44,829 bases of DNA from Escherichia phage vB_Eco_Lzu_P3. Location: the sequence record PQ295796; one strand, 5' to 3'. Shown piece by piece: positions 1,966 to 31,101 of this stretch. Position numbers and translations under genes: made by a program. The notes under the pieces are model-generated. The model made no database searches. It had not been told where the DNA came from and worked only from the letters and a program-made list of their open reading frames with translations. Position 1 is the first letter of the stretch. Each line of letters opens with the position of its first letter.

Positions 1966-2558
1966 TATTTCACCTTCGAATTAATCTCTGCCGCTACGAC
2001 GCGAACAATCCCCGCGGGCGCTTGTTTACTCCAGCCATACTCAAGTCGCTGCGCGTATGGCACGTTGTTAGTAAACCAGATCGACCCGTATTCACTCGAA
2101 TCGTAATGCGCCAGCACTTCACGTCCCGCGGCTAATGTTGCCGTTCCGGCCTTGTCAACGCGGTCAATAGCACCGACAGCCGGGCGATCAAATGTCACCT
2201 GCCAGTTACCACGGAAGCGCCCGCCGGTGTAATTCTTCGCGGCCCAGCCACGCTGGCGGAATGTCACATTGCCGTTTTTAGTCTTGAATGATACCAGCAC
2301 ACTGGCGTGCTTCTTCTGCCCGCGCTTCAGTTTGCCGCCATTCTTGCGACGCTGTGCGGCGTTCACCTTGTTCGCGTGCTGGCGAGCCATTGCATAAGCC
2401 TTGTTAATCTTCCACCGGCGAGGGTCGCCCACCGGGGAGATCTCAATAAGGCGTCCGAGTATTTGCATCCCGTACGCCCGCACCGCCTTATCGTTGTTCT
2501 CCTTCGTCTTATCCACCCATGTAGCAATAGTGGCGGCGAATGAGTAGACTTCAGCCAC
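1965..2558 (-). CDS. Putative neck / head-tail joining protein
   Basis: 197-aa ORF with GTG start at 2558 and AAGGGG RBS. Function assigned by position between connector and tail genes only. Confidence 0.4.
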   Translation of the reverse strand: MAEVYSFAATIATWVDKTKENNDKAVRAYGMQILGRLIEISPVGDPRRWKINKAYAMARQHANKVNAAQRRKNGGKLKRGQKKHASVLVSFKTKNGNVTFRQRGWAAKNYTGGRFRGNWQVTFDRPAVGAIDRVDKAGTATLAAGREVLAHYDSSEYGSIWFTNNVPYAQRLEYGWSKQAPAGIVRVVAAEINSKVK

Positions 2559-2559
2559 G

Positions 2560-2913
2560 TTAGCCCCTTAGCTGTAGTTGAAACAGCATGGTCTGGCCCG
2601 CCGGTTGCAGGGGGTTGGGATTGACAACCCGGTAGTCTGTATTGTTCAGGCTAACCAAATCCCCGACCTTTACCTGCTTAACGGCCTGACACAAAAACTT
2701 CACATCACCGGCAACGATACGCGTCCCGTCGATCTCGCTCGGCTTGTACTCCTCTCGAAGACCGATGACGTCGAACGACGTTGGCGGGATTATCACTTCG
2801 TCGCCGTCTACGCGGTCAACCGACCCCGGACGCGTCACCGTAGCCGTCATGCCGAACTTTTTAATCAGCGGATTGACTTTCCGCTTTAACCCCGCGTAAT
2901 TAAAGCCCGCCAT
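2560..2913 (-). CDS. Putative head-tail adaptor protein
   Basis: ORF 2560..2919; start moved to the second ATG (2913), which has AGGAGG 6 nt upstream. Confidence 0.4.
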   Translation of the reverse strand: MAGFNYAGLKRKVNPLIKKFGMTATVTRPGSVDRVDGDEVIIPPTSFDVIGLREEYKPSEIDGTRIVAGDVKFLCQAVKQVKVGDLVSLNNTDYRVVNPNPLQPAGQTMLFQLQLRG

Positions 2914-3016
2914 TATCATCCTCCTGTACCGGTGGTTCCGGTTCTGGCGCTGGTTCCGGTTCTGGTTGGCGTTTAGTATTTGCGGCGATAATAGCCGCCA
3001 GAAATGCAGGATTCAT
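2900..3016 (-). CDS. Small hypothetical protein (38 aa, PEPEPAPEPEP repeat)
   Basis: Internal ATG of ORF 2900..3247 with a GGGGG RBS-like run 5 nt upstream. Fills the gap between two head-tail genes. Very short, so low confidence. Confidence 0.25.
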   Translation of the reverse strand: MNPAFLAAIIAANTKRQPEPEPAPEPEPPVQEDDNGGL

Positions 3017-3017
3017 A

Positions 3018-3518
3018 TCACCCCCGGAATACATCAAAATTACCCGCTGCGTTGCCGTCTGAGTCAATCCAGTGGCCCAGCAAGCCATCCCACCACGGGA
3101 ACGAGACACCGCTACCAATCGTCGCAGGGTCATATTCCATCGTGATCGGGCCAACAGTTTCGCGGATAGTCTCCTTACCGCTGCCCACAGGAGAAATATC
3201 AACCTCGTCCGCCACCAACATCGCCAACCTGTAAACGGCTTGCTCAACGGCTACGGGGATTGATGCGAAGTCTACTATTTGCCCTGCAGGCACTACTGCC
3301 AAAACTTCAGTGAGCGTGTCGCGCACCGGCTTACCGTCAGATGGGTAATTGATGCGGGGCCATGCGGCGATGCCTGTCTGGTCCGCGGGTTCTCCGATCC
3401 AGTTGATGCCGTTAAGGAAGTCATTAACGACGGTAAGGTGGCGCGTTGCATCGATCAGCGTGACTTCAACGCCTCGCGCGGCGGCATAATCAATAAAGGT
3501 TTGTGGGTCGCCATACAT
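3018..3518 (-). CDS. Putative head-tail connector / head completion protein
   Basis: ORF 3018..3548; the listed first ATG lies inside the terminator hairpin after the capsid gene. Start moved to ATG at 3518, which has an AGGAGTG RBS. Confidence 0.45.
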   Translation of the reverse strand: MYGDPQTFIDYAAARGVEVTLIDATRHLTVVNDFLNGINWIGEPADQTGIAAWPRINYPSDGKPVRDTLTEVLAVVPAGQIVDFASIPVAVEQAVYRLAMLVADEVDISPVGSGKETIRETVGPITMEYDPATIGSGVSFPWWDGLLGHWIDSDGNAAGNFDVFRG

Positions 3519-5568: not shown

Positions 5569-5615
5569 TTGCATTGCGGATGTTGGTTGCATTATATTGG
5601 TTGCACACCAACAGA
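5569..5615 (+). promoter_or_regulatory. Promoter TTGCAT-N18-TATATT, with two TTGGTTGCA elements flanking and overlapping the -10
   Basis: gcTTGCATtgcggatgTTGGTTGCAtTATATTGGTTGCACACCAACA. The -10 plus downstream element is almost identical to the 16.5-kb promoter. Confidence 0.5.
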
Positions 5616-13170: not shown

Positions 13171-13199
13171 CTTTATTACTCCTCTCGTTGATTGGTCGC

Positions 13200-13229
13200 A
13201 GTATGGCGTCTATGTTGGTTGCAAGTCAA
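13200..13229 (-). promoter_or_regulatory. Promoter TTGACT-N18-CATACT (minus strand), with TGCAACCAA in the spacer
   Basis: Lies upstream of the candidate micro-ORF and the phosphoesterase/terminase genes. Confidence 0.35.
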
Positions 13230-16146: not shown

Positions 16147-16452
16147 TTATTTCGCAAGCTGGGCGAATAGTTCACGTTGTGCTGCAATCCGGGCGACGTT
16201 TGTCGCTGCCGTCTCACCGATCCCGAAGCGATACGCCAGGCGCTCGCGGGCAAATGCCCTCGCATATTCGCAGATTGCCACGCGCAGCGGTTCCAGTTCG
16301 TCCAGGCTGGCAAACATATCGTCGAACGCGTTTATGATTCCCTGCTGGGCCAGGATAACAGCCTGGCGCGCGTCATCTGCGTTGCCGTCTGTGTGCTTCG
16401 CTTCGTACATCTTCGCCACCGCCATTGCGTAATTCCAGATTAATTTTTTCAT
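16147..16452 (-). CDS. Hypothetical protein (101 aa), first gene after the 16.5-kb promoter
   Basis: GAGGA RBS 7 nt upstream of ATG 16452. Preceded by a predicted promoter with operator-like elements. Confidence 0.5.
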   Translation of the reverse strand: MKKLIWNYAMAVAKMYEAKHTDGNADDARQAVILAQQGIINAFDDMFASLDELEPLRVAICEYARAFARERLAYRFGIGETAATNVARIAAQRELFAQLAK

Positions 16453-16465
16453 TGTTCAGTCCTCA

Positions 16466-16513
16466 TGTTGGTGTGCAACCAATCTAGCAGGGTGCCAGGC
16501 GGAATGCAACCAA
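16466..16513 (-). promoter_or_regulatory. Promoter TTGCAT-N17-TAGATT (minus strand) with an ATTGGTTGCAcACCAACA operator-like element overlapping -10 and +1
   Basis: Minus-strand read: attaatATTGGTTGCATtccgcctggcaccctgcTAGATTGGTTGCACACCAACAtgaggactgaacaATG. Confidence 0.5.
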
Positions 16514-16668
16514 TATTAATCATGCGCATGAAAAAGTCGATCGCTATCTGCTGTGACTGCAAACTGCATTTTCCGCCCACCATTCAGCAACTCGCATTGG
16601 TTGCCTAGTTCAGTGACGACCGCAATCCGCAACATGCTGCCGTGTATTTTGCAATCCCGGATTTTATG

Positions 16669-16838
16669 CAGTCTCAGACGAGGGGGGCCATCGACCCCCG
16701 TCTAGTCTGAAAGACTGGGGGTTGTCCCGCCTGTCCCGCTCCCCTCCAGGCCGCGTCATCCGGGGGTGGGACGGGGTGCTGTCCCGCTTTGTCCCGCCCC
16801 TGGTCTGTCCCGCTTTTTGTCCCGCTTACTTTATGCAG
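16669..16838. repeat. Iteron element A: 70-bp GC-rich hairpin block plus six direct TGTCCCGC iterons, then an A+T-rich segment with TTATGCAG boxes
   Basis: Read directly. 16669..16738 matches 44397..44466 with one mismatch. TGTCCCGC starts at 16723, 16732, 16780, 16790, 16806 and 16818. Confidence 0.85.
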
Positions 16839-16931
16839 TTTTATTGCATAACTATGCACTATATTCACACTACACGGCAACCAATGCGACCAGCTAAAAA
16901 CACTCAAAATGGCAACCAATGCGCGCAAAAA

Positions 16932-19196
16932 TTAATCTTTCAGGTCATCATCGGTCGCCGAAAGCGTGATGGGGATATCCGATTTGATGACTAAATTCGA
17001 CGACCCATATATGGCCCCGGTGTGCGGATCTGTATAGAAACCAATCACGCCGCGCTCGACCATATCGTCGATTGCCTTCGTCGAAGTGCCACCCTTAGCG
17101 AGTCCCGCCTGGCGGACGATTGCCGATTTACTGAAACCAGTATGGTCCGGGTTATCTTCCATCAGTTTTTCCAGGGCCGCATAAAGCACTTTCTCTTTTT
17201 CGGTGCGCGGACCGGCGGCGTTTTCTTCCTTAACTGCGGCTTTTCCTGCGGCCTTCGCTTGTTCTATAGCGAACGGAGCCAGGGCGACCGGTACGAGGTA
17301 GAGAGTCTCGTCGCGTGGCGTGGATGCAATTGGCTTGACGTCCCAACCGGCAACCACATCCCCGAAGTCTGGCCCGGTGCTGGTGGACTGGTGCGACGCG
17401 AATGCCTCAGACTTGCGTAGATCAACCTTAACTTTGCACTTGAGCAGGACGAAGCCACGCGGCGCTTGCTTGATGCCGTTACGTGATTTTTCGTGGTACA
17501 GGTTCAATTGTCCGGGCTGGTTGTCGTCCGGCTGTTCCAGGAAGAAAGCAGAATCGACAGCACCATGCAGCGCGCCGGACCCGCGTGGCGTTCTGCTGCC
17601 GTTTGCCCCTTTCGCCGGGTGGTGGATGACGCCCGCACTGCCGCCTGTATTTTCCGCGATGGCTTTCAGCGCTTTGACAACTTCACCCATATCGCTGGCG
17701 TTGTTCTCGTCGAACGGTTTAGCATCGGCGGACCGCAACGCAACAGTCTGGTTGAGTGAGTCGAACGCCACCAGGCCGACCGGCTCGCCGTTAGCAGTGC
17801 GGTTGATATAGCTGATAACTTCGCGCAAACCGGACTTGCTGGTGATATCCCATCCGCGTGACTGCAGATCGATAATGTGCAGCTTGTCGAGGTCGTGCTC
17901 GTATTTAATCTGCAATGCTTCTTTGCGCTGGTTAGAGGCTTCACCACCTTCCGCGTCGAAATAGAAGCAATGAGACTGGACGACCTTCGCACCACCAAAC
18001 GGAATACCGGCGGCAACCGCACCCATCTGCCCAAGCACATAGAAAGACTTACCGATATTCGACTCACCCGCCATATACCAGGTCGATTTAAAGTTAATCA
18101 GACCTTCGATGATCGGGTCGTGCTTACTGAACAGCGCAACCGGCTCGTTATCCAGATCCGCATCGGTGCACACGCCATATTCTTCGCCGTCGCCCACCGC
18201 ATCAACAATGTGATCATATAAGGATTCGACTTCCTCGTCGTCCAGACCTGGCAGGATGGCGGCGATTTGCTTACGCGACATGTTGTGCGGCTCGACGTTC
18301 AGGTGGTCCGGTATCCCGATAAGACGTAGCGCCAGGTGCTGGTGTCTATTTAGCTCCGAGCAACACTCGTTGCCGGTGTGCATACACTTGAAACGGATCT
18401 CGCCATCCTTGACCATGATAGCCGTCGACCCTTCTCCGCTGTGCAGATGTTCGTTCGGGCACGGCACTTCATAACCGCGACCGGAAGATAACTCCTCGAA
18501 TCCTGCCTGGAAGCACCAGTCCAGAATCCCGTCCGCCACTGCGTCGTCGCCCTGGGTAAGCTCGCGGCGTACTTCCTCCTTCTCCACCCCCAGCTTATCC
18601 GCCAGGCGAAGCAGACGACGCACATTAGCGCGCTTGCCGTAGTGGCACTTAATGACAGACTGCTGGTGTGGCAGGTACATAAGACGGTTTGTGTCTTTCG
18701 TGCAATCGTCGAAGTCAACATCCGACAGACCAAGTTGGTCTAACAGCGCGTACTGCACGCGGCCCAGGTCTTCCGCCGGGACAGGCTTGTCAGTGAGTAC
18801 CAGGAAGCGAGCGCAACGCGTGCCGCCTTTCAGTGGGTGACGGTCGCCGGTTGTGGTGTGGAATACGTGCTCCAGCCCCGCGTCTATAAAAGCCTTACGG
18901 CAGCGGCGTAGGGTGCGGGTGTCGGTACGGTCGATATCGAAGAACAGGATCGAGCGGTCCACCGCACTGGTCTTACGACGTAAGCCGTCACTGGTATATG
19001 CCACGATGCCATCGGCCTTACGCTTGCGGCGTGCATACTCGGCTTTATCTTCCGTCTTGTTGATATGCACCGAGGAGATTTCTTTCGCGTCATTGATAAA
19101 TTCGAAAAATTCATCGGTGGTCATCTGGAAGTTTTCCGCCCTGGCTTTTTCGCCTTTTTTAGCGGGTTTTGTTACAGCGAATTTAATTAAGCTCAT
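16932..19196 (-). CDS. DNA primase-helicase with C-terminal putative DNA-binding domain
   Basis: 754 aa. N-terminal primase-like region, a Cys/His cluster (CPNEHLH…CMHTGNECC) and a P-loop (GESNIGKS) in a RecA-like ATPase region. C-terminal segment is winged-helix-like. Confidence 0.7.
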   Translation of the reverse strand: MSLIKFAVTKPAKKGEKARAENFQMTTDEFFEFINDAKEISSVHINKTEDKAEYARRKRKADGIVAYTSDGLRRKTSAVDRSILFFDIDRTDTRTLRRCRKAFIDAGLEHVFHTTTGDRHPLKGGTRCARFLVLTDKPVPAEDLGRVQYALLDQLGLSDVDFDDCTKDTNRLMYLPHQQSVIKCHYGKRANVRRLLRLADKLGVEKEEVRRELTQGDDAVADGILDWCFQAGFEELSSGRGYEVPCPNEHLHSGEGSTAIMVKDGEIRFKCMHTGNECCSELNRHQHLALRLIGIPDHLNVEPHNMSRKQIAAILPGLDDEEVESLYDHIVDAVGDGEEYGVCTDADLDNEPVALFSKHDPIIEGLINFKSTWYMAGESNIGKSFYVLGQMGAVAAGIPFGGAKVVQSHCFYFDAEGGEASNQRKEALQIKYEHDLDKLHIIDLQSRGWDITSKSGLREVISYINRTANGEPVGLVAFDSLNQTVALRSADAKPFDENNASDMGEVVKALKAIAENTGGSAGVIHHPAKGANGSRTPRGSGALHGAVDSAFFLEQPDDNQPGQLNLYHEKSRNGIKQAPRGFVLLKCKVKVDLRKSEAFASHQSTSTGPDFGDVVAGWDVKPIASTPRDETLYLVPVALAPFAIEQAKAAGKAAVKEENAAGPRTEKEKVLYAALEKLMEDNPDHTGFSKSAIVRQAGLAKGGTSTKAIDDMVERGVIGFYTDPHTGAIYGSSNLVIKSDIPITLSATDDDLKD

Positions 19197-19206
19197 TGCC
19201 GTTGCC

Positions 19207-19536
19207 TTATTTGGAAGTTTTATTATTGCGTACCCAGGATCGCACGGTGCTCTGATTAATTCCTGTCAACTCCGCGATCATTGCCCATGACTTCCCCTCA
19301 TCACGTAAACGGATAACCTGTTTTTTGTATTCTTCCATTTCCTCATTGTGCTTTTGCAGCTTGCTTGCTGCCGTACCGTTGAGTAATTCCAGCTTCGCGC
19401 GCAATTCTTTCTCGGTAAGTCGCAGACGTTCGATTTCAAATAGCACCGCACCCACGGCATCGGTATATGCCCAGGACCGGCTTGTCTCACTGCAAACAGT
19501 CTTAGTTAACATTTCGATTGCGTCGTCGATATTCAT
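19207..19536 (-). CDS. Putative HTH transcriptional regulator (first gene of leftward early operon)
   Basis: 109 aa. C-terminal segment GKSWAMIAELTGINQSTVRSWV resembles an HTH. GGAGA RBS. A palindromic operator-like site lies in its own leader. Confidence 0.5.
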   Translation of the reverse strand: MNIDDAIEMLTKTVCSETSRSWAYTDAVGAVLFEIERLRLTEKELRAKLELLNGTAASKLQKHNEEMEEYKKQVIRLRDEGKSWAMIAELTGINQSTVRSWVRNNKTSK

Positions 19537-19550
19537 TGTTCTGTCTCCGG

Positions 19551-19596
19551 TTGGTTAATGACCAACGAAACTACACCTAAAACCGCGGGGTGTCAA
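19551..19596 (-). promoter_or_regulatory. Leftward early promoter TTGACA-N17-TAGTTT, followed by the palindrome TTGGTtaatgACCAA (19551..19565)
   Basis: Read on the minus strand; the palindrome overlaps the predicted transcription start of the HTH regulator gene. Confidence 0.45.
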
Positions 19597-19666
19597 CTTC
19601 TTTGGGATATTGAAACGGGCGCGCACGCGTGTAATAATACTCCCGTCTCATTGTCTCTTATTGGTT

Positions 19667-19701
19667 AGCGCCGTCGCATTTTGCTTCGGCGCTTTTTTTT
19701 T
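19667..19701 (+). terminator. Intrinsic terminator-like hairpin plus T9 tract, immediately upstream of the rightward early promoter
   Basis: AGCGCCG-(13-nt loop)-CGGCGCT followed by a T9 tract. Confidence 0.4.
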
Positions 19702-19711
19702 AAATTAGTTG

Positions 19712-19740
19712 TTGACTCCCTTCTGCAACCAATCTAATAT
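19712..19740 (+). promoter_or_regulatory. Rightward early promoter: TTGACT-N17-TAATAT, with TGCAACCAA in the spacer
   Basis: Near-consensus sigma70 hexamers with 17-bp spacing at the head of the plus-strand early block. Confidence 0.55.
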
Positions 19741-19936
19741 TCACCTCGTCGACAGGATGCAGGACGCAAACTGGAGAGGGGCAACGCAGGGGCCGGATCG
19801 AAGTGTCAGGATTCCCAACCGTGATTATATAACCAGGTCCACTACCCGAAAGGGAGAACGCGTAACCTGGCAATATGTTAAGGCCACCGACGAAGTTAAC
19901 TGCCGACACCTAAACTTAACCAATTGGAGATACACC

Positions 19937-20446
19937 ATGTTTGAACAAATCGTAAACCTGATTACTCGCGGCGTAGTAGCACTGGAAACAATCGCTAAAC
20001 ATTATGAAACCGTTGGCGCTGCCGTTGGTAAGCAGGAAGATAAAAAGCCATCTAAGGCGAAAAAAGAAGTCGTAGAAGATGACGACGCTGAAGACGAAGC
20101 ACCGGCGAAAACCAAAAAAGCACCGGCGAAAGGTAAGGCCAAAAAAGAAGTCGTAGAAGATGACGACGATGAAGCCGAAGACGAAAAACCGGCGAAAGGT
20201 AAAAAAGCCACGGCGAAAGGCAAAGGTAAGAAAGATGCCGATCCGCTGGCAGAGATGCGCGACGAAATCAAACAGTATGCCGCGATTATCGCCGGTGGTG
20301 ATGACGACGACGCCAACGACGAATTTGACGACCTGCTGGAATCGTTCGAGATCAAATCAATCGCTAAACTGGAAGATGACGACGTCGAAGACTTCCACAA
20401 AGATCTGAAAGAAATCGTCGAAACCTATTTCGAACTGGAAGACTAA
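19937..20446 (+). CDS. Highly acidic early protein with internal charged repeats
   Basis: Start chosen at ATG 19937 with GGAGA RBS; the ORF track extends it to 19709. Contains tandem KKEVVEDDD(A/D)E…PAKGK repeats. It is the first gene downstream of the strongest predicted early promoter. Confidence 0.5.
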   Translation: MFEQIVNLITRGVVALETIAKHYETVGAAVGKQEDKKPSKAKKEVVEDDDAEDEAPAKTKKAPAKGKAKKEVVEDDDDEAEDEKPAKGKKATAKGKGKKDADPLAEMRDEIKQYAAIIAGGDDDDANDEFDDLLESFEIKSIAKLEDDDVEDFHKDLKEIVETYFELED

Positions 20447-20452
20447 TATTAT

Positions 20453-20482
20453 CCGGCCCGCTAATCTGCGGGCCTATTTTTA
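20453..20482 (+). terminator. Intrinsic terminator after the acidic early gene
   Basis: GGCCCGC-taatct-GCGGGCC stem followed by TATTTTTA. Confidence 0.55.
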
Positions 20483-20494
20483 GAGGACGAGACA

Positions 20495-20746
20495 ATGGCA
20501 CGCTTCACGCTAATCGAGGCGGTGGATTCCCGCGACCAGCGCCCGTACTATTGGCTATTCGAACGCATCGGCAGCTTTCAGTCACGCGTTGCCGTAATTG
20601 ATAAACGCCGCAATACTCCCGCGCAAATTAAGCGCACCACATTTACTAACCCCGACTTTTATATTTGGGCGGACTCCAATCTGGAATATGTTCGCTTCGC
20701 CGTTGCGTCCGAAGCAAAAACAATTGACCGCTGGGATACAAAATAA
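20495..20746 (+). CDS. Hypothetical protein (83 aa)
   Basis: AGAGGA RBS before ATG 20495. Follows an intrinsic terminator. Confidence 0.45.
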   Translation: MARFTLIEAVDSRDQRPYYWLFERIGSFQSRVAVIDKRRNTPAQIKRTTFTNPDFYIWADSNLEYVRFAVASEAKTIDRWDTK

Positions 20747-20935
20747 ATGGCTATATTCTTTGTTTTATTTCGTTGCCGTATTACCGGCGATGAGCAACCG
20801 GAAATCGTTATGAATCAGAACTGGAATTGCTGCTGGACTCAAGCCAGAGGACTGGCGGCTACCATGAACGAAGCCGCGAAGCGGGCTGGGGTTAAACATG
20901 AATATTACATTGCTCAGTTTTCAAGGGTGGAATAA
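20747..20935 (+). CDS. Hypothetical protein (62 aa)
   Basis: ORF in the early operon with a weak RBS; start is uncertain. Confidence 0.3.
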   Translation: MAIFFVLFRCRITGDEQPEIVMNQNWNCCWTQARGLAATMNEAAKRAGVKHEYYIAQFSRVE

Positions 20936-22365
20936 TGGCGATTAAACCAAAACGTAAAACGCAATCCGGTAGCAATACGGAACACTCATTACTTGGTCCA
21001 TCCGGTGCTAAAAAATGGATGGGTTGCCCTGCCGCCCTGGTGGTGGAAAAAGATATCCCGAACGAATCCGGGCAAGCCGCGATTAACGGTACGAGTATGC
21101 ACACCGTATCTGAGGTGGTGCTAAACCGCATTATCGCCGGTGAGAAGCTGATAACCGCGAAGACGTATAAAGGGTGCTACGTCGAGAACGAAGGCAAGGG
21201 GCCAGTAAAGGCACACCCTAAAGCACCGAAAGGCGGCGTACTGGTCAACGACGACATGGTGAAACAGTGCGATGCATACATCGACCACTGGCGACCGCTC
21301 CTCGAAGTGGCGGAGTTTGTCCAGCTTGAGATGCGCGCCGACCTAACCCGCGTTCTCCACCCCGGCGTCGAGATCAACGGCAACAAGGTTAAGACGTTCG
21401 GCACTGCCGATATGGTCATGGTCATGAAGAAGACCGACGGCACGTACATGCTGATTGTTGGCGACCTGAAGACCGGGCGACATAAGGTCGAGGCGAAAGA
21501 AAACAAACAGCTTATGTTGTACGCGCTGGGCCTGCTGCGCAAGCTGCAAACCATGTACGACATTACGACCGTGCGCCTGGTCATCTTTCAACCGTATTGC
21601 GGCGGGGCGTCAGAGTGGGATATCACAGTGGAAGCGCTGGAGATATTCGCGAAGTTTGCATCCAAGCGCGCTGTCATAGCACTGGATGCGTACGAACGCG
21701 GCAAAAAAGGACTCACCCGCGCCGACTTCCGACCCAGCGTCGATGCGTGCCAGTGGTGCAGATTTGCGGACCAGTGCAGCGTCCGGGCGAAGGCCGCAAT
21801 CGACACGATGACGCCACCAACGGCAACTGACGAAGACCTGGGCGACGACGTGAGCGTGGCAACCGAGGAAGAGTGCGCCAACCACGACCGCAATATGGCC
21901 CGCGAAGCCCGGAAGGCTGCCCGACGTGCTAAACGGGGCAAGAAGGAATCCACCCCAGGCGCTATGAGCGCGGCGGAACTGCGCAAGGCTTATGAAGGAC
22001 TTGACGCAATGCGCCAGCACATCAAAGCTATCGAATCCGCGGTATTCAAGGCGGTCATGGCGGGCGATGGCGAATCGTTGGGCCTTAAGATGGTTGCCGG
22101 TAAGGAAGGGATCCGTAAGTGGGCGGACGAGAGCGAAGTGATTGAAATCTTCACGAAGGCCCGGATCAAGCGCGATGTGATGTACAAAGAAACATTGCTC
22201 AGCCCGACCGATGCCGAGAAGGTACTGAAGGACGAAAAACCGAAAGTGTGGGCGAAGCTGTGTGCTAAAATCACGCGCGCACCCGCTAAACCGGTGTTAG
22301 CACCAATCGACGACCCGCGCCCCGCGTGGTCTGAAGCTACTGACGAGGACTTAAGCGATGAATAA
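20935..22365 (+). CDS. PD-(D/E)xK exonuclease, Cas4/RecB-like (DUF2800-type)
   Basis: RecB-type motifs are visible: GDLKTG, QLMLYA (QxxxY), one N-terminal Cys (WMGCP) and a C-terminal Cys triad (CQWCRFADQC), consistent with an Fe-S cluster as in Cas4-like nucleases. Confidence 0.6.
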   Translation: MAIKPKRKTQSGSNTEHSLLGPSGAKKWMGCPAALVVEKDIPNESGQAAINGTSMHTVSEVVLNRIIAGEKLITAKTYKGCYVENEGKGPVKAHPKAPKGGVLVNDDMVKQCDAYIDHWRPLLEVAEFVQLEMRADLTRVLHPGVEINGNKVKTFGTADMVMVMKKTDGTYMLIVGDLKTGRHKVEAKENKQLMLYALGLLRKLQTMYDITTVRLVIFQPYCGGASEWDITVEALEIFAKFASKRAVIALDAYERGKKGLTRADFRPSVDACQWCRFADQCSVRAKAAIDTMTPPTATDEDLGDDVSVATEEECANHDRNMAREARKAARRAKRGKKESTPGAMSAAELRKAYEGLDAMRQHIKAIESAVFKAVMAGDGESLGLKMVAGKEGIRKWADESEVIEIFTKARIKRDVMYKETLLSPTDAEKVLKDEKPKVWAKLCAKITRAPAKPVLAPIDDPRPAWSEATDEDLSDE

Positions 22366-22600: not shown

Positions 22601-22635
22601 CCGCTTAGGCGCAACCAAGTAGATTAGCAACCAAG
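22597..22635 (+). promoter_or_regulatory. Promoter TTGACC-N17-TAGATT, with GCAACCAAG elements in the spacer and just downstream of -10
   Basis: Upstream of the SSB-like gene. The motif is a variant of TGCAACCAA. Confidence 0.4.
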
Positions 22636-29395: not shown

Positions 29396-29428
29396 TTGGT
29401 TGCATAATCATATTGGTTGCATTATATT
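29396..29428 (+). promoter_or_regulatory. Promoter TTGCAT-N17-TATATT, with tandem TTGGTTGCA elements (29396..29404 and 29413..29421)
   Basis: Read directly, upstream of the gene at 29476. Confidence 0.5.
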
Positions 29429-30617: not shown

Positions 30618-31084
30618 AATTACTGATTTGCGATTTGGATGGCGTTATTAACGGTTCAAGCGATGCGCGTGCCGACTTGGTGCCTGGCATAAAAACTAAA
30701 TCCACCTTTTGGGCGAAGTGGCACAAGGCGCACGTCCGCGAAGACCTTAACATGGATATGCTGCCGCTACTGCGCATGTATAAAGAGCAAGGCTTCGAGA
30801 TCGCGTATCTGACCAACCGGCAGCGAGAATGTTGGGACACCACCGCCGAGCAATTGGAGGTCTTCCCAGTAGGCCGGTTGTTTATGCGCCACATGCTGGA
30901 CGACACCCCGCCGCCTGAGTTTAAAGCGTGCGCCGTGTTCAAAATGGTATGTTACGCGGACGTGTCTGAACTGGTCATCATTGAAGATTGCGAGAAGAAC
31001 ATCGCGGCAATTCGTCGGGCGTGTAGTGATTTGGTCCCGAAAATTTACGCAATAAACGTTGCAAAATTCACTTGCAACCAATAG
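30614..31084 (+). CDS. HAD-superfamily hydrolase (putative nucleotidase/phosphatase)
   Basis: N-terminal motif I LLICDLDGVI (DxDG). GAGAG RBS. ATGA overlap with the upstream gene. Confidence 0.5.
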   Translation: MKLLICDLDGVINGSSDARADLVPGIKTKSTFWAKWHKAHVREDLNMDMLPLLRMYKEQGFEIAYLTNRQRECWDTTAEQLEVFPVGRLFMRHMLDDTPPPEFKACAVFKMVCYADVSELVIIEDCEKNIAAIRRACSDLVPKIYAINVAKFTCNQ

Positions 31085-31101
31085 GTTGGTTGCACTATAG
31101 T
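31072..31101 (+). promoter_or_regulatory. Promoter TTGCAA-N18-TATAGT, containing the inverted repeat TGCAACCAA-N4-TTGGTTGCA (31073..31094)
   Basis: A perfect 9-bp inverted repeat separated by 4 bp, embedded in the promoter. Confidence 0.5.

Follow-up and report, generated by a model that had tools for sequence, protein, structure and literature searches.

Three putative promoters, a candidate small RNA gene and a structured leader RNA in the divergent control gap of a Dhillonvirus

How are two large operons that leave a common 400-bp gap in opposite directions controlled in a virulent phage? The question was addressed in Escherichia phage vB_Eco_Lzu_P3 (record PQ295796), whose whole stretch of 44,829 nucleotides is called the window hereafter. 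The source is a Dhillonvirus, i.e. a virulent E. coli siphophage of the HK578/SSL-2009a-like group. Dhillonviruses serve as standard test phages in studies of defence systems (BASEL and SECphi collections) and are candidates for use in therapy; no transcript map was found in the literature for any of them. According to the ORF list and to annotated relatives, the gap (19537-19936, 400 bp) separates a leftward unit, composed of the HTH gene, the primase-helicase gene, lysis genes and structural genes, from a rightward unit of replication and recombination genes. The divergent control region proposed by an earlier note is thus borne out, two large transcription units leaving from this gap, and every sequence element listed in that note was found in place and is supported by relatives. 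Its likeness to a simple switch stops short of the lambda type: neither an integrase nor a CI-type repressor is annotated among the 67 genes of the near-identical SSL-2009a, in agreement with the note, no CI/Cro pair was found there, and the locus holds one small HTH protein. Three short reading frames of the gap (on the + strand 19558-19668 and 19610-19708, on the - strand 19700-19909) were rejected because relatives show frame-breaking indels or are entirely devoid of the segment. The features of the locus, of which the promoters and the small RNA with its targets are predictions, are the following:

19207..19536, - strand: HTH gene, first leftward gene (109 aa, C-terminal helix-turn-helix)
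19537..19558, - strand: translation initiation region of the HTH gene, TTAACCAA-CC-GGAGA-CAGAACA then ATG; predicted target of the small RNA
19551..19565, no strand: palindrome TTGGT-TAATG-ACCAA, spanning the predicted leftward start (~19562); candidate operator
19569..19597, - strand: putative promoter P_L, TTGACA (19597-19592), N17, TAGTTT (19574-19569)
19610..19638, + strand: putative promoter P_s, TTGAAA, N17 ending in TGT, AATAAT; back to back with P_L
19645..19701, + strand: candidate small RNA of ~57 nt, composed of a single-stranded 5' end GUCUCAUUGUCUCUUAUUGGUUA (19645-19667), the hairpin of a terminator (19667-19693) and a tail of U9
19667-19693, + strand: the hairpin itself, followed by T9 (19693-19701), which ends 10 bp before the -35 of P_R
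19712..19740, + strand: putative promoter P_R, TTGACT (19712-19717), N17, TAATAT (19735-19740), with the box TGCAACCAAT in its spacer (19724-19733)
19748..19907, + strand: leader RNA cassette of ~160 nt, with helices P1 (19748-19755 / 19900-19907), P2 (19758-19768) and P3 (19778-19782 / 19883-19888)
19784-19822 and 19827-19876, + strand: inner helices P4-P5 and P6-P7 of the leader, which bring the total to seven helices in nested junctions
19916..19939, + strand: initiation region of the first rightward gene, TTAACCAA-TT-GGAGA-TACACC-ATG; the small RNA is predicted to pair here
19937..20446, + strand: first rightward gene, encoding an acidic protein of 169 aa (PHROG 3127, unknown function)
20455..20484, + strand: terminator-like hairpin and T-run, directly 3' of the first rightward gene

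Promoters and hairpin of the gap

The gap would carry three sigma-70 promoters (P_L, P_s and P_R), against two in the earlier note. All three display sigma-70 hexamers with a spacing of 16-18 bp. A scan by consensus alone returned 4 sites where 2.1 +/- 1.7 were expected in 2.5 kb, which is not above chance; it is the conservation in relatives, not the consensus match, that sets these promoters apart. P_L was missed by the scan because its -10 matches the consensus at 3 of 6 positions, the -35 being perfect. This leftward promoter, already described as TTGACA-N17-TAGTTT, is conserved in the manner of a promoter: hexamers and 17-bp spacing are invariant and the spacer drifts, about 8 of its 17 bases varying in Ioannina, LM40P1 and CHD5UKE2. 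The -10 of CHD5UKE2 reads TAGTAT.

P_s is the best sigma-70 match in 18500-21000 (10/12, plus the TG of an extended -10). It is invariant in nine divergent relatives, barring one -35 base in CHD5UKE2, and the block 19607-19646 is 96-99% conserved over 18 loci. It had gone unmentioned in the earlier note despite being the best consensus match of the region. Its -10 ends at 19638, 29 nt 5' of the hairpin stem, and about 22 nt separate the predicted start (~19645) from the hairpin downstream.

As for P_R, the promoter is present and conserved as such, but to call it "near-consensus" was generous for this phage, its score being 9/12; most relatives have TTGACA-N18-TAT(T/C)AT. In 30 of 35 distinct regions upstream of the leader cassette, across genera, the -10 of the best sigma-70 match ends 7-11 nt 5' of helix P1. 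Judged from such sequence comparisons, the rightward promoter is real. The motif TGCAACCAA previously reported in its spacer was confirmed at 19724-19732 and is invariant in all relatives. Positions -38 to -59 consist of T9 followed by AAATTAGT, an A/T-rich tract of the kind found in UP elements, and the T-run may help P_R in this way. The same RNA cassette is likewise preceded by the T-run of a terminator in Arya and BUCT618, 13-30 bp before the -35.

The GC hairpin with its T9 tract at 19667..19701 is found, as had been noted, about 10 bp upstream of the rightward -35. It is composed of a 7-bp GC stem and a 3-bp inner stem followed by U9, and folds at -16.2 kcal/mol (z = -4.2), a value reached by none of 200 shuffles. 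Two compensatory double changes, G-C to U-A and G-C to C-G, were observed in its stem in Ioannina and LM40P1. In all relatives the stem is long and GC-rich and the T-run counts 8-13 residues; moreover, the hairpin has been annotated independently as a terminator in other deposited genomes. Both sequence and conservation support its being a genuine intrinsic terminator.

What, then, would it terminate? Upstream of it on the + strand, the ORF list and the promoter scan show no gene and no promoter besides P_s, so that the hairpin would be the terminator of a short P_s transcript. The suggestion that it insulates the rightward promoter thus stands in part: it would shield P_R from P_s, but not as a free-standing insulator, since the P_s transcript would end there. 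Conservation is highest between these two elements. P_s and the transcribed 5' segment form the most conserved part of the locus and are near invariant in the most divergent relatives: 19647-19666 is 99.7% conserved and the whole of 19607-19666 96-100% over 18 loci, where the coding DNA on either side reaches 74-96%. In the predicted fold of the RNA the first 22 nt are unpaired, and indels in relatives indicate that 19645..19701 contains no conserved reading frame. P_s, the single-stranded 5' end and the hairpin with T9 most likely constitute an unnoticed gene for a ~57-nt sRNA (19645-19701). Its layout, with a promoter of its own, a conserved unpaired pairing region and a terminator with a long U tail, would be that of an Hfq-type sRNA.

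Pairing of the candidate sRNA and the repeated DNA box

The 5' end of the candidate sRNA carries two GUCUC anti-Shine-Dalgarno repeats and UUGGUUA. Exact TTAACCAA occurs twice in the 44.8 kb, both times in the ribosome-binding site of a first gene flanking the gap. Complementarity to both genes is visible as repeats (I2 and D2), and positions 19654-19667 of the sRNA are complementary over 14 nt to the initiation region of the rightward gene (repeat I2). The predicted duplex with the HTH gene reaches -19.0 kcal/mol, as do 30 of 5000 shuffled seeds; that with the rightward gene reaches -17.9 / -18.0 kcal/mol (9 of 5000), and no shuffled seed of 5000 matched both energies together. Over the genome, 0.7% of windows attain -18 kcal/mol, and the two flanking sites rank within the top 1%. 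Among 66 sites ranked for predicted pairing, however, they are 5th and about 7th, and several other sites of the GGAGACA type are predicted to pair equally well or better, so that the sRNA may not be specific for the flanking genes. The seed is almost invariant among relatives, and a C to U change in the Ioannina target is still paired through G.U (hand alignment). A perfect 12-nt match at orf65 of SSL-2009a was attractive but was discarded, not being conserved in the present phage.

Part of this complementarity could be a by-product of repeated protein sites, since its AACCAAT core resembles a DNA box that recurs in the genome. With at most one mismatch, TGCAACCAA is present in 27 copies, 12 of them exact, against 11.3 +/- 3.4 expected (0/100 shuffles); ATTGGTTR has 15 copies for 3.0 expected. 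Copies lie mostly in intergenic and promoter DNA, in both orientations. The SSB promoter holds one in its spacer, as does P_R, and others are clustered with iteron-like repeats in an ORF-free stretch of about 500 bp after the primase-helicase gene. The genome-wide form is GCAACCAAT; both ribosome-binding sites and the sRNA carry the variant TAACCAAT.

The 5+5 palindrome reported over the P_L start is indeed at 19551-19565. Exact TTGGT-N5-ACCAA occurs three times in the 44.8 kb (5597, 16468 and 19551), for about 0.04 copies expected from base counts by our own arithmetic. Of the Dhillonviruses examined, all keep it at P_L but CHD5UKE2, in which the left gene is different too. Its recurrence in three copies fits a role as operator, for which it is a candidate. 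The palindrome of P_L and the spacer box of P_R are members of one genome-wide motif, which stands at promoters and at a candidate replication origin.

Which protein would bind this box? Our guess is a DNA-binding protein encoded by the phage, with the neighbouring HTH protein of 109 aa (PHROG 9366) as the most plausible one. The HTH domain attributed to it earlier was recovered by Pfam (HTH_23, 4.6e-7; Sigma70_r4_2, 2.1e-6; HTH_28, 4.8e-6), and the protein is a candidate regulator or origin-binding protein. The HTH domain of CHD5UKE2 is related (47% identity), yet P_L has no palindrome in that phage. In relatives the gene is labelled Gam, resolvase or transposase, and domain support was seen for none of these names.

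The leader RNA cassette behind P_R

Cassette matches were found by blastn in unrelated phage genera, inside unannotated gaps. The structure of the ~160-nt leader is shown by comparative analysis: in the alignment, 94.5% of cells are paired, versus 33-42% in slid controls, and in 24 of 46 base pairs both partners vary (covariation score 0.458 versus at most 0.06). Single-sequence folding was uninformative, giving no signal (z = +0.8 and +0.6). All-against-all column covariation was swamped by a two-clade phylogeny; a single additional pair that it gave is credible (columns 106-129). In many deposited genomes, spurious proteins are annotated over this RNA.

The cassette, promoter included, is common to at least six phage groups, and it is cleanly missing from some Dhillonviruses, YD-2008.s being a case of natural deletion. 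Outside six groups of virulent phages no similarity was detected by blastn. The leader is unmatched in Rfam, both at permissive thresholds (2.5 kb; 186 nt and seven other phages, E up to 10) and at gathering level (the whole genome). Neither it nor the candidate small RNA has a blastn match in 5,426 E. coli genomes or 72,556 plasmids, and host origin or mimicry of either RNA was discarded on this basis. A strongly covarying RNA of ~160 nt is thus absent from Rfam and from these collections, yet common to unrelated virulent phages. When genome contigs were scanned with a 16-mer of the leader, about 120 chance matches were listed, roughly as many as the size of the collection predicts; the real one was a phage-like contig (L068). 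A pattern scan of metagenomes gave 48 loci, of which 34 were chance matches in coding DNA and 14 true ones, all from the same phage groups, i.e. no wider distribution.

What might such an RNA be? It shares with riboswitches a conserved multi-helix architecture closed by P1. No expression platform was found: P1 is 16-34 nt from the Shine-Dalgarno sequence (own count), with no conserved alternative pairing. The genes downstream of the cassette are unrelated, without Pfam domains, and form no consistent controlled class. A resemblance to the c-di-GMP-I riboswitch in short motifs was rejected as no covariance model matched; a CsrA sponge was rejected with a single invariant loop GGA, in P2; a tRNA-like element, with A-CC-A/U after P1 in many copies but not all, and no T-loop; and a retron RNA, with no reverse transcriptase nearby. 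The leader's role is directly testable because natural variants with and without the cassette exist.

Proposed circuit and known systems

Our main reading, with a probability of roughly 55%, combines three promoters, a ~57-nt sRNA damping both operons, a circuit based on the box and a leader RNA. P_L would fire leftward from ~19562 into the HTH and primase-helicase genes. P_s would fire rightward from ~19645 until polymerase stops at the hairpin with U9 (19667-19701), leaving a ~57-nt RNA. The hairpin would in this way terminate a small RNA gene and, as a by-product, keep P_s transcription out of P_R, which would itself fire rightward from ~19747 and produce a transcript beginning with the folded RNA of ~160 nt, then the replication and recombination genes. 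The 5' end of the sRNA is predicted to pair with TTAACCAA-NN-GGAGA of the first gene on each side and so to damp translation of both operons. On the DNA level an overlapping circuit is envisaged, in which a phage protein, likely the HTH protein, would bind both the palindrome at P_L and the spacer box of P_R, TGCAACCAAT. Observed directly are the elements themselves and their degree of conservation, together with covarying base pairs and the complementarity statistics; the firing of the promoters, the accumulation of the 57-nt RNA, the repression of translation and the identity of the box-binding protein are what we infer from them.

Three other explanations were weighed. The model of the earlier note retains two divergent promoters, with the hairpin as a passive insulator and/or an UP-like element; P_s would then be weak or silent, or its product without function. 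The A/T-rich tract upstream of P_R does resemble an UP element, and the T-run preceding the cassette promoter in Arya and BUCT618 suggests that a terminator followed by a promoter often marks the border of a module. This model is unlikely all the same: apart from P_s there is nothing on the upstream + strand to insulate against, and it leaves unexplained both why conservation at the locus peaks in the 22 nt that separate P_s from the hairpin and why these are complementary to both ribosome-binding sites. A switch acting through DNA only, in which the block 19606-19701 and TTAACCAA / ATTGGTTA / CAACCAAT are sites for one phage protein (HTH protein or replication initiator), would make the RNA-RNA complementarity a side effect of sites repeated in both orientations. 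It accounts well for a box that is strongly over-represented, stands at promoters in both orientations and is clustered with iteron-like repeats after the primase-helicase gene, and for the three palindromes. We consider it quite improbable: the complementarity runs past the AACCAAT core into the Shine-Dalgarno bases with matched spacing, over 15 pairs, the variant of the box in the ribosome-binding sites and the sRNA is not the genome-wide one, and a protein site needs neither a strong promoter nor a covarying terminator around it.

In an attenuator, finally, early rightward transcription would start mainly at P_s and the hairpin would be a regulated terminator; with host or phage help, read-through would cross P_R into the operon, and the 57-nt RNA would be a terminated by-product, like the short P_R' transcript of lambda. 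P_s, the terminator and P_R do stand in tandem, and the second terminator after the first gene suggests stepwise control of read-through. The fold offers no alternative anti-terminator pairing, however, every relative has a long stem rich in GC and a run of 8-13 T, and a P_R that is strong and conserved needs no supply by read-through, which makes the attenuator very improbable.

If the reading with three promoters is right, the control region of Dhillonviruses gains a testable wiring diagram, with an sRNA having two predicted targets and a box with its candidate binder. Taken jointly, the gap might hold two undescribed RNAs, a self-throttling sRNA and a new family of travelling structured RNAs; we hold this joint reading tentatively and with some doubt. 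Its first part, if true, would mean that an sRNA of a virulent phage throttles both of its own divergent lead operons by anti-ribosome-binding-site pairing. According to the second, the RNA family would always sit with its own promoter at the 5' end of the transcript, be dispensable in some phages, and be exchanged horizontally as a cassette between virulent siphophages of enterobacteria that belong to at least six groups; the leader could then work as RNA alone on polymerase, ribosome or RNase, or serve as a decoy against a host defence.

Short phage RNAs with their own sigma-70 promoter and an intrinsic terminator are known from the main control regions of lambda (OOP) and P22 (sar). These RNAs of 55-80 nt base-pair with a neighbouring phage mRNA, P22 sar with a ribosome-binding site. 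The candidate sRNA resembles them as a short terminated RNA with its own promoter inside a control region, predicted here to pair with neighbouring mRNA. OOP and sar, in contrast, are cis-antisense RNAs overlapping their target on the opposite strand, and come from temperate phages, the present phage being virulent. The sRNA (19645-19701, +) overlaps neither the HTH transcript (to ~19562, -) nor the P_R transcript (from ~19747, +); overlapping neither flanking gene, it would act in trans, through imperfect duplexes of 15 pairs with two divergent genes.

Operators or activator sites that recur at the promoters of a phage are likewise known, as lambda operators and T4 MotA boxes, and the present box has in common with them that a short motif recurs at many promoters of one genome. 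It differs by its position in the -23 to -14 spacer, versus -30 or the promoter flanks, and by its occurrence in both orientations and also in the candidate origin. One copy is palindromic, over the start of the gene of the adjacent small HTH protein.

For the leader, the nearest comparison is putL of HK022, an antiterminator RNA located directly 3' of an early promoter, within a few bases of the start, and acting as folded nascent RNA (PMC9378689). Position and nascent folding are alike. The put RNAs are of ~70 nt with two stem-loops (PMC9378689), whereas the leader has ~160 nt and seven helices in nested junctions. On the + strand, no intrinsic terminator was found within ~2.5 kb 3' of the cassette in tunus, Lumpael and Arya, and one follows gene 1 here. 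Dhillonviruses without the cassette keep the same terminator after the first gene; in WF5505, one of them, it is annotated at the place equivalent to 20455..20484.

A trans-acting sRNA of the Hfq type is encoded by lambda itself: LPR1/PreS regulates host genes such as dnaN (bioRxiv 10.1101/2024.10.31.621285). Like the candidate described here, it has an independent gene in the phage, and its unpaired pairing segment precedes a terminator that ends in a long U tail. Its targets are those of the host, whereas the best-supported predicted targets in the present phage are its own two lead genes.

Layout of the divergent control gap

About 140 genomes of Dhillonvirus (virulent E. coli siphophages like HK578 and SSL-2009a) match the 1.4 kb around the finding at 92-96% identity. 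Near-identical genomes are deposited under other hosts as 'Campylobacter phage A144', 'Acinetobacter phage NJ01' and 'Sodalis phage SO-1' (public records with odd host labels: MG065648.1, OQ221563.1, NC_013600.1), and an IME279-like phage segment lies on a Cereibacter sphaeroides MAG contig (L068); these labels and this bin are probably wrong, or reflect contamination. The elements of the locus are distributed as follows.

16932-19196, leftward: primase-helicase gene, behind the 109-aa gene
19207-19536, leftward: 109-aa helix-turn-helix (HTH) gene, left border of the gap
19537-19936: control gap of 400 bp between the divergent lead genes
19551-19565: palindrome TTGGT-TAATG-ACCAA, covering the predicted leftward start
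19569-19597, minus strand: leftward promoter P_L, TTGACA-N17-TAGTTT
19610-19638, plus strand: predicted promoter P_s, TTGAAA (19610-19615), N17, AATAAT (19633-19638), TG before the -10; 10/12 consensus match
19645-19701, plus strand: candidate small RNA
19667-19693, plus strand: GC hairpin, then T9, ending 10 bp before the next -35
19712-19740, plus strand: rightward promoter P_R, TTGACT-N17-TAATAT, with TGCAACCAA in its spacer
19748-19907, plus strand: structured leader RNA (the cassette)
19937-20446, rightward: 169-aa acidic-protein gene (gene 1), right border of the gap and first of the replication and recombination genes
20455-20484: strong terminator-like hairpin GGCCCGC...GCGGGCC with T-run, directly 3' of gene 1

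In the fully annotated relative SSL-2009a, each direction from the gap corresponds to one of the genome's two large transcription units: leftward the HTH gene, primase-helicase, small genes, lysis, terminase and virion genes, rightward exonuclease, single-strand-binding protein, DNA polymerase, helicase and methylases. Since both units diverge from it, the gap is, judged by gene order, the main divergent control region of the phage. Gene 1 contains an internal direct repeat (20069-20086 and 20150-20167; protein motif KKEVVEDDD), and its product is 169 to 180 aa long across relatives. The hairpin behind it, kept in WF5505 and annotated there as a terminator, implies that the acidic protein would be expressed much above the genes that follow.

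P_L, P_R, the palindrome and the hairpin with its T9 had all been described in an earlier note and were found in place. Consensus matches to promoters are at chance level in the region (4 sites against 2.1 +/- 1.7 expected, no excess), so that the comparative data carry the weight. P_L keeps both hexamers and the 17 bp between them without change even in the relatives that diverge most (Ioannina, LM40P1, CHD5UKE2), where about half of the spacer bases differ; fixed hexamers and spacing with a drifting spacer are the classic mark of a real promoter.

A predicted third promoter and a candidate small RNA

The top sigma-70 match of the region is P_s, absent from the earlier note. It stands back to back with P_L, 12 bp separating their -35 hexamers, and its predicted start (about 19645) lies 22 nt upstream of the hairpin. 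The predicted product of about 57 nt consists of GUCUCAUUGUCUCUUAUUGGUUA, the hairpin and U9, and folds with an unpaired 5' end (the seed) and the terminator at its 3' side. The hairpin is exceptionally stable (-16.2 kcal/mol, z = -4.2; 0/200 shuffles equally stable) and is already marked as a terminator in two deposited genomes. In Ioannina and LM40P1 its stem differs by two double changes that preserve pairing. The segment 19607-19666 is the most conserved stretch of the locus (96-100% identity against 74-96% for flanking coding DNA, 18 loci). Nine divergent relatives keep this block nearly invariant; as exceptions, Ioannina and LM40P1 have lost 1 nt and Opt212 has 5 nt duplicated. It is restricted to Dhillonvirus (154 records), with no counterpart among E. 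coli genomes. Small ORFs in the gap were rejected as genes, their reading frames being broken in relatives. Because P_s is followed by a conserved unpaired segment, and no other gene or promoter for the hairpin to terminate was found upstream of it on the plus strand, in our reading the hairpin would terminate a candidate small RNA gene.

The rightward gene's ribosome-binding site, at 19917-19930, is complementary to positions 19654-19667; the latter segment also nearly repeats the reverse complement of the leftward site. Both flanking sites read TTAACCAA-NN-GGAGA, and they hold the only two exact copies of TTAACCAA in the 44.8 kb. Predicted pairing with the rightward target comprises 8 + 7 pairs over the Shine-Dalgarno bases (-18.0 kcal/mol; 9/5000 shuffled seeds as good) and with the leftward target 7 + 7 + 4 pairs (-19.0 kcal/mol; 30/5000); no shuffled seed of 5000 did as well for both together. 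With the seed, -18 kcal/mol is reached by only 0.7% of genome windows. Against specificity, the flanking sites rank no higher than 5th and about 7th of the 66 annotated SSL-2009a start regions. Covariation of seed and targets is not scorable, because the seed hardly varies. As the small RNA contains two GUCUC repeats and GGAGACA is a frequent Shine-Dalgarno sequence of the phage, it may act on several phage mRNAs. SSL-2009a orf65 was discarded as a target, its 12-nt perfect match not being conserved.

The leader RNA cassette and its possible roles

Unexpectedly, blastn matched the gap to unannotated DNA of unrelated phages: in Drexlerviridae tunus, swan01, slyngel, JLBYU16, PHB17 and KMI8, and elsewhere Murrayvirus Lumpael, Sortsnevirus IME279, Jilinvirus Arya and BUCT618. 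Each match is an element of about 160 nt within a 230-260-nt gap between co-oriented genes. Its helix P1 encloses a P2 hairpin and a three-way junction closed by P3, with two long arms (P4/P5 and P6/P7); P7 has a GNRA loop, and the joining strands are purine-rich and invariant (GGAGA, GACGAAG). In a structure-aware alignment of 22 distinct copies, hand-padded and hence somewhat biased in P1, P2 and P6, with P3, P5 and P7 in ungapped blocks, 94.5% of the cells hold a standard pair, against 33-42% with partners slid by 1-3 columns and 76.1% in column shuffles (0/500 as high). Pairs changed on both sides number 24/46 (2-8 when slid), and the covariation score is 0.458 (at most 0.06 when slid). 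Compensatory changes also occur inside Dhillonvirus, where one P6 pair is A-U, C-G or U-A.

P_R gains strong independent backing here: among 35 distinct copies, 30 have the best sigma-70 match of the 110 nt upstream positioned with its -10 end 7-11 nt before P1, which places the leader RNA, by prediction, at the extreme 5' end of its transcript wherever it is found. In Arya (L128, 1410-1427) and BUCT618 (L127, 1422-1435) the cassette promoter is closely preceded by a strong intrinsic terminator, the same order as in the window, with non-homologous hairpins. The cassette is optional: YD-2008.s, WF5505, rolling, CHD5UKE2, Ioannina and LM40P1 lack about 135 nt as a clean gap and retain promoter and ribosome-binding site (about 9/154 Dhillonvirus records by our count). 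No Rfam family matches it on 186 nt even at E up to 10, no match exists in 5,426 E. coli genomes or 72,556 plasmids, and pattern searches of IMG/VR and metagenomes gave no wider distribution. In many deposited Dhillonvirus genomes a 'hypothetical protein' is placed over the structured RNA (window 19700-19936), or the acidic-protein gene is extended upstream through it; examples are CDS 2556-3290 of Ioannina (L207) and gp46 of Sodalis phage SO-1. The way the RNA covaries, and its clean loss from some genomes, indicate that such frames do not code.

The closest idea for its role is a put-like antiterminator, since putL also begins at the transcript 5' end (PMC9378689). However, the architecture differs, no plus-strand intrinsic terminator follows the cassette in the three other genera examined (tunus, Lumpael, Arya; about 2.5 kb), and cassette-less Dhillonviruses retain the terminator after gene 1, all of which argues against it. 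Neither a conserved expression platform nor a common gene class is seen, which makes a classical riboswitch unlikely; the downstream genes are unrelated among phages and without known domains. We tentatively favor a cis-acting 5' leader that would work through RNase, Rho or ribosomes to protect or boost the transcript carrying it (probability about 0.45). That the RNA is processed and acts in trans, perhaps as a decoy for a host factor or defence, seems rather unlikely, and a ligand sensor distinctly more doubtful still.

The genome-wide box and a model of the region

The spacer motif of P_R recurs throughout the genome: TGCAACCAA has 12 exact copies and, with one mismatch, 27 (11.3 +/- 3.4 expected; 0/100 shuffles as high), ATTGGTTR has 15 (3.0 expected), and the exact palindrome TTGGT-N5-ACCAA occurs at 5597, 16468 and 19551. 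Most boxes of SSL-2009a fall between genes and at promoters, pointing either way, and the single-strand-binding gene promoter (TTGACC-N17-TAGATT) has one in its spacer, as does P_R. Further TGCAACCAA(T) copies, often paired and often just upstream of a -10-like hexamer (for instance TGCAACCAATATAAT at 5597, minus strand), are at 5583-5611, 13192-13223, 15942, 22610-22634, 26439, 29396-29421, 31073-31094 (two copies as an inverted repeat) and 34192. This pattern suggests a phage-specific promoter or operator code.

The 500 bp or so directly after the primase-helicase stop codon (16432-16932), without a credible ORF, hold CTGTCCCGCTTT four times, iteron-like, GGCAACCAATGCG three times, once inverted, TGCAACCAA twice and one TTGGT-N5-ACCAA palindrome. 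Three copies of the box are located with the CTGTCCCGCTTT repeats. This stretch looks like an iteron-type replication origin, a candidate that would have the CAACCAAT box in common with the promoters.

The obvious but unproven candidate for the binder is the 109-aa protein, with its C-terminal HTH domain (Pfam HTH_23 4.6e-7; Sigma70_r4_2 2.1e-6). Pfam supports only this sigma region 4-like domain, and the public names 'DNA recombination nuclease inhibitor gamma', 'transposase' and 'resolvase' (besides 'hypothetical') look like propagated errors. In CHD5UKE2 the left protein differs, with only the HTH domain in common (47% identity); there the palindrome is absent and the P_R box is kept. If this candidate is the binder, the palindrome over the HTH gene's own start would allow autoregulation, which agrees with the earlier note's comparison of the layout to a switch.

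The observed sequences, conservation, covariation and statistics of the region can be combined into a model in which expression, repression and the identity of the box binder are what we infer. P_L and P_s would diverge from a common 50-bp core, and P_s would produce the terminated 57-nt RNA, whose 5' end could mask the ribosome-binding site of each operon's lead gene. The insulator role once proposed for the hairpin would survive in part, the small RNA's own terminator shielding P_R, 10 bp downstream, from P_s polymerases; its T-run may double as an UP-like element for P_R. Both promoters would be tied to a genome-wide DNA-binding regulator, P_L by its palindrome and P_R by its spacer box. 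The open-access full-text literature yielded no transcript map or RNA annotation for Dhillonvirus. Three parts appear undescribed: a candidate trans-encoded RNA of a virulent siphophage directed against ribosome-binding sites, the CAACCAAT box with its genome-wide spread, and a structured RNA cassette that is linked to its promoter and common to several phage genera. The general plan of divergent phage promoters, operator and short terminated RNA is like that of lambda and P22.
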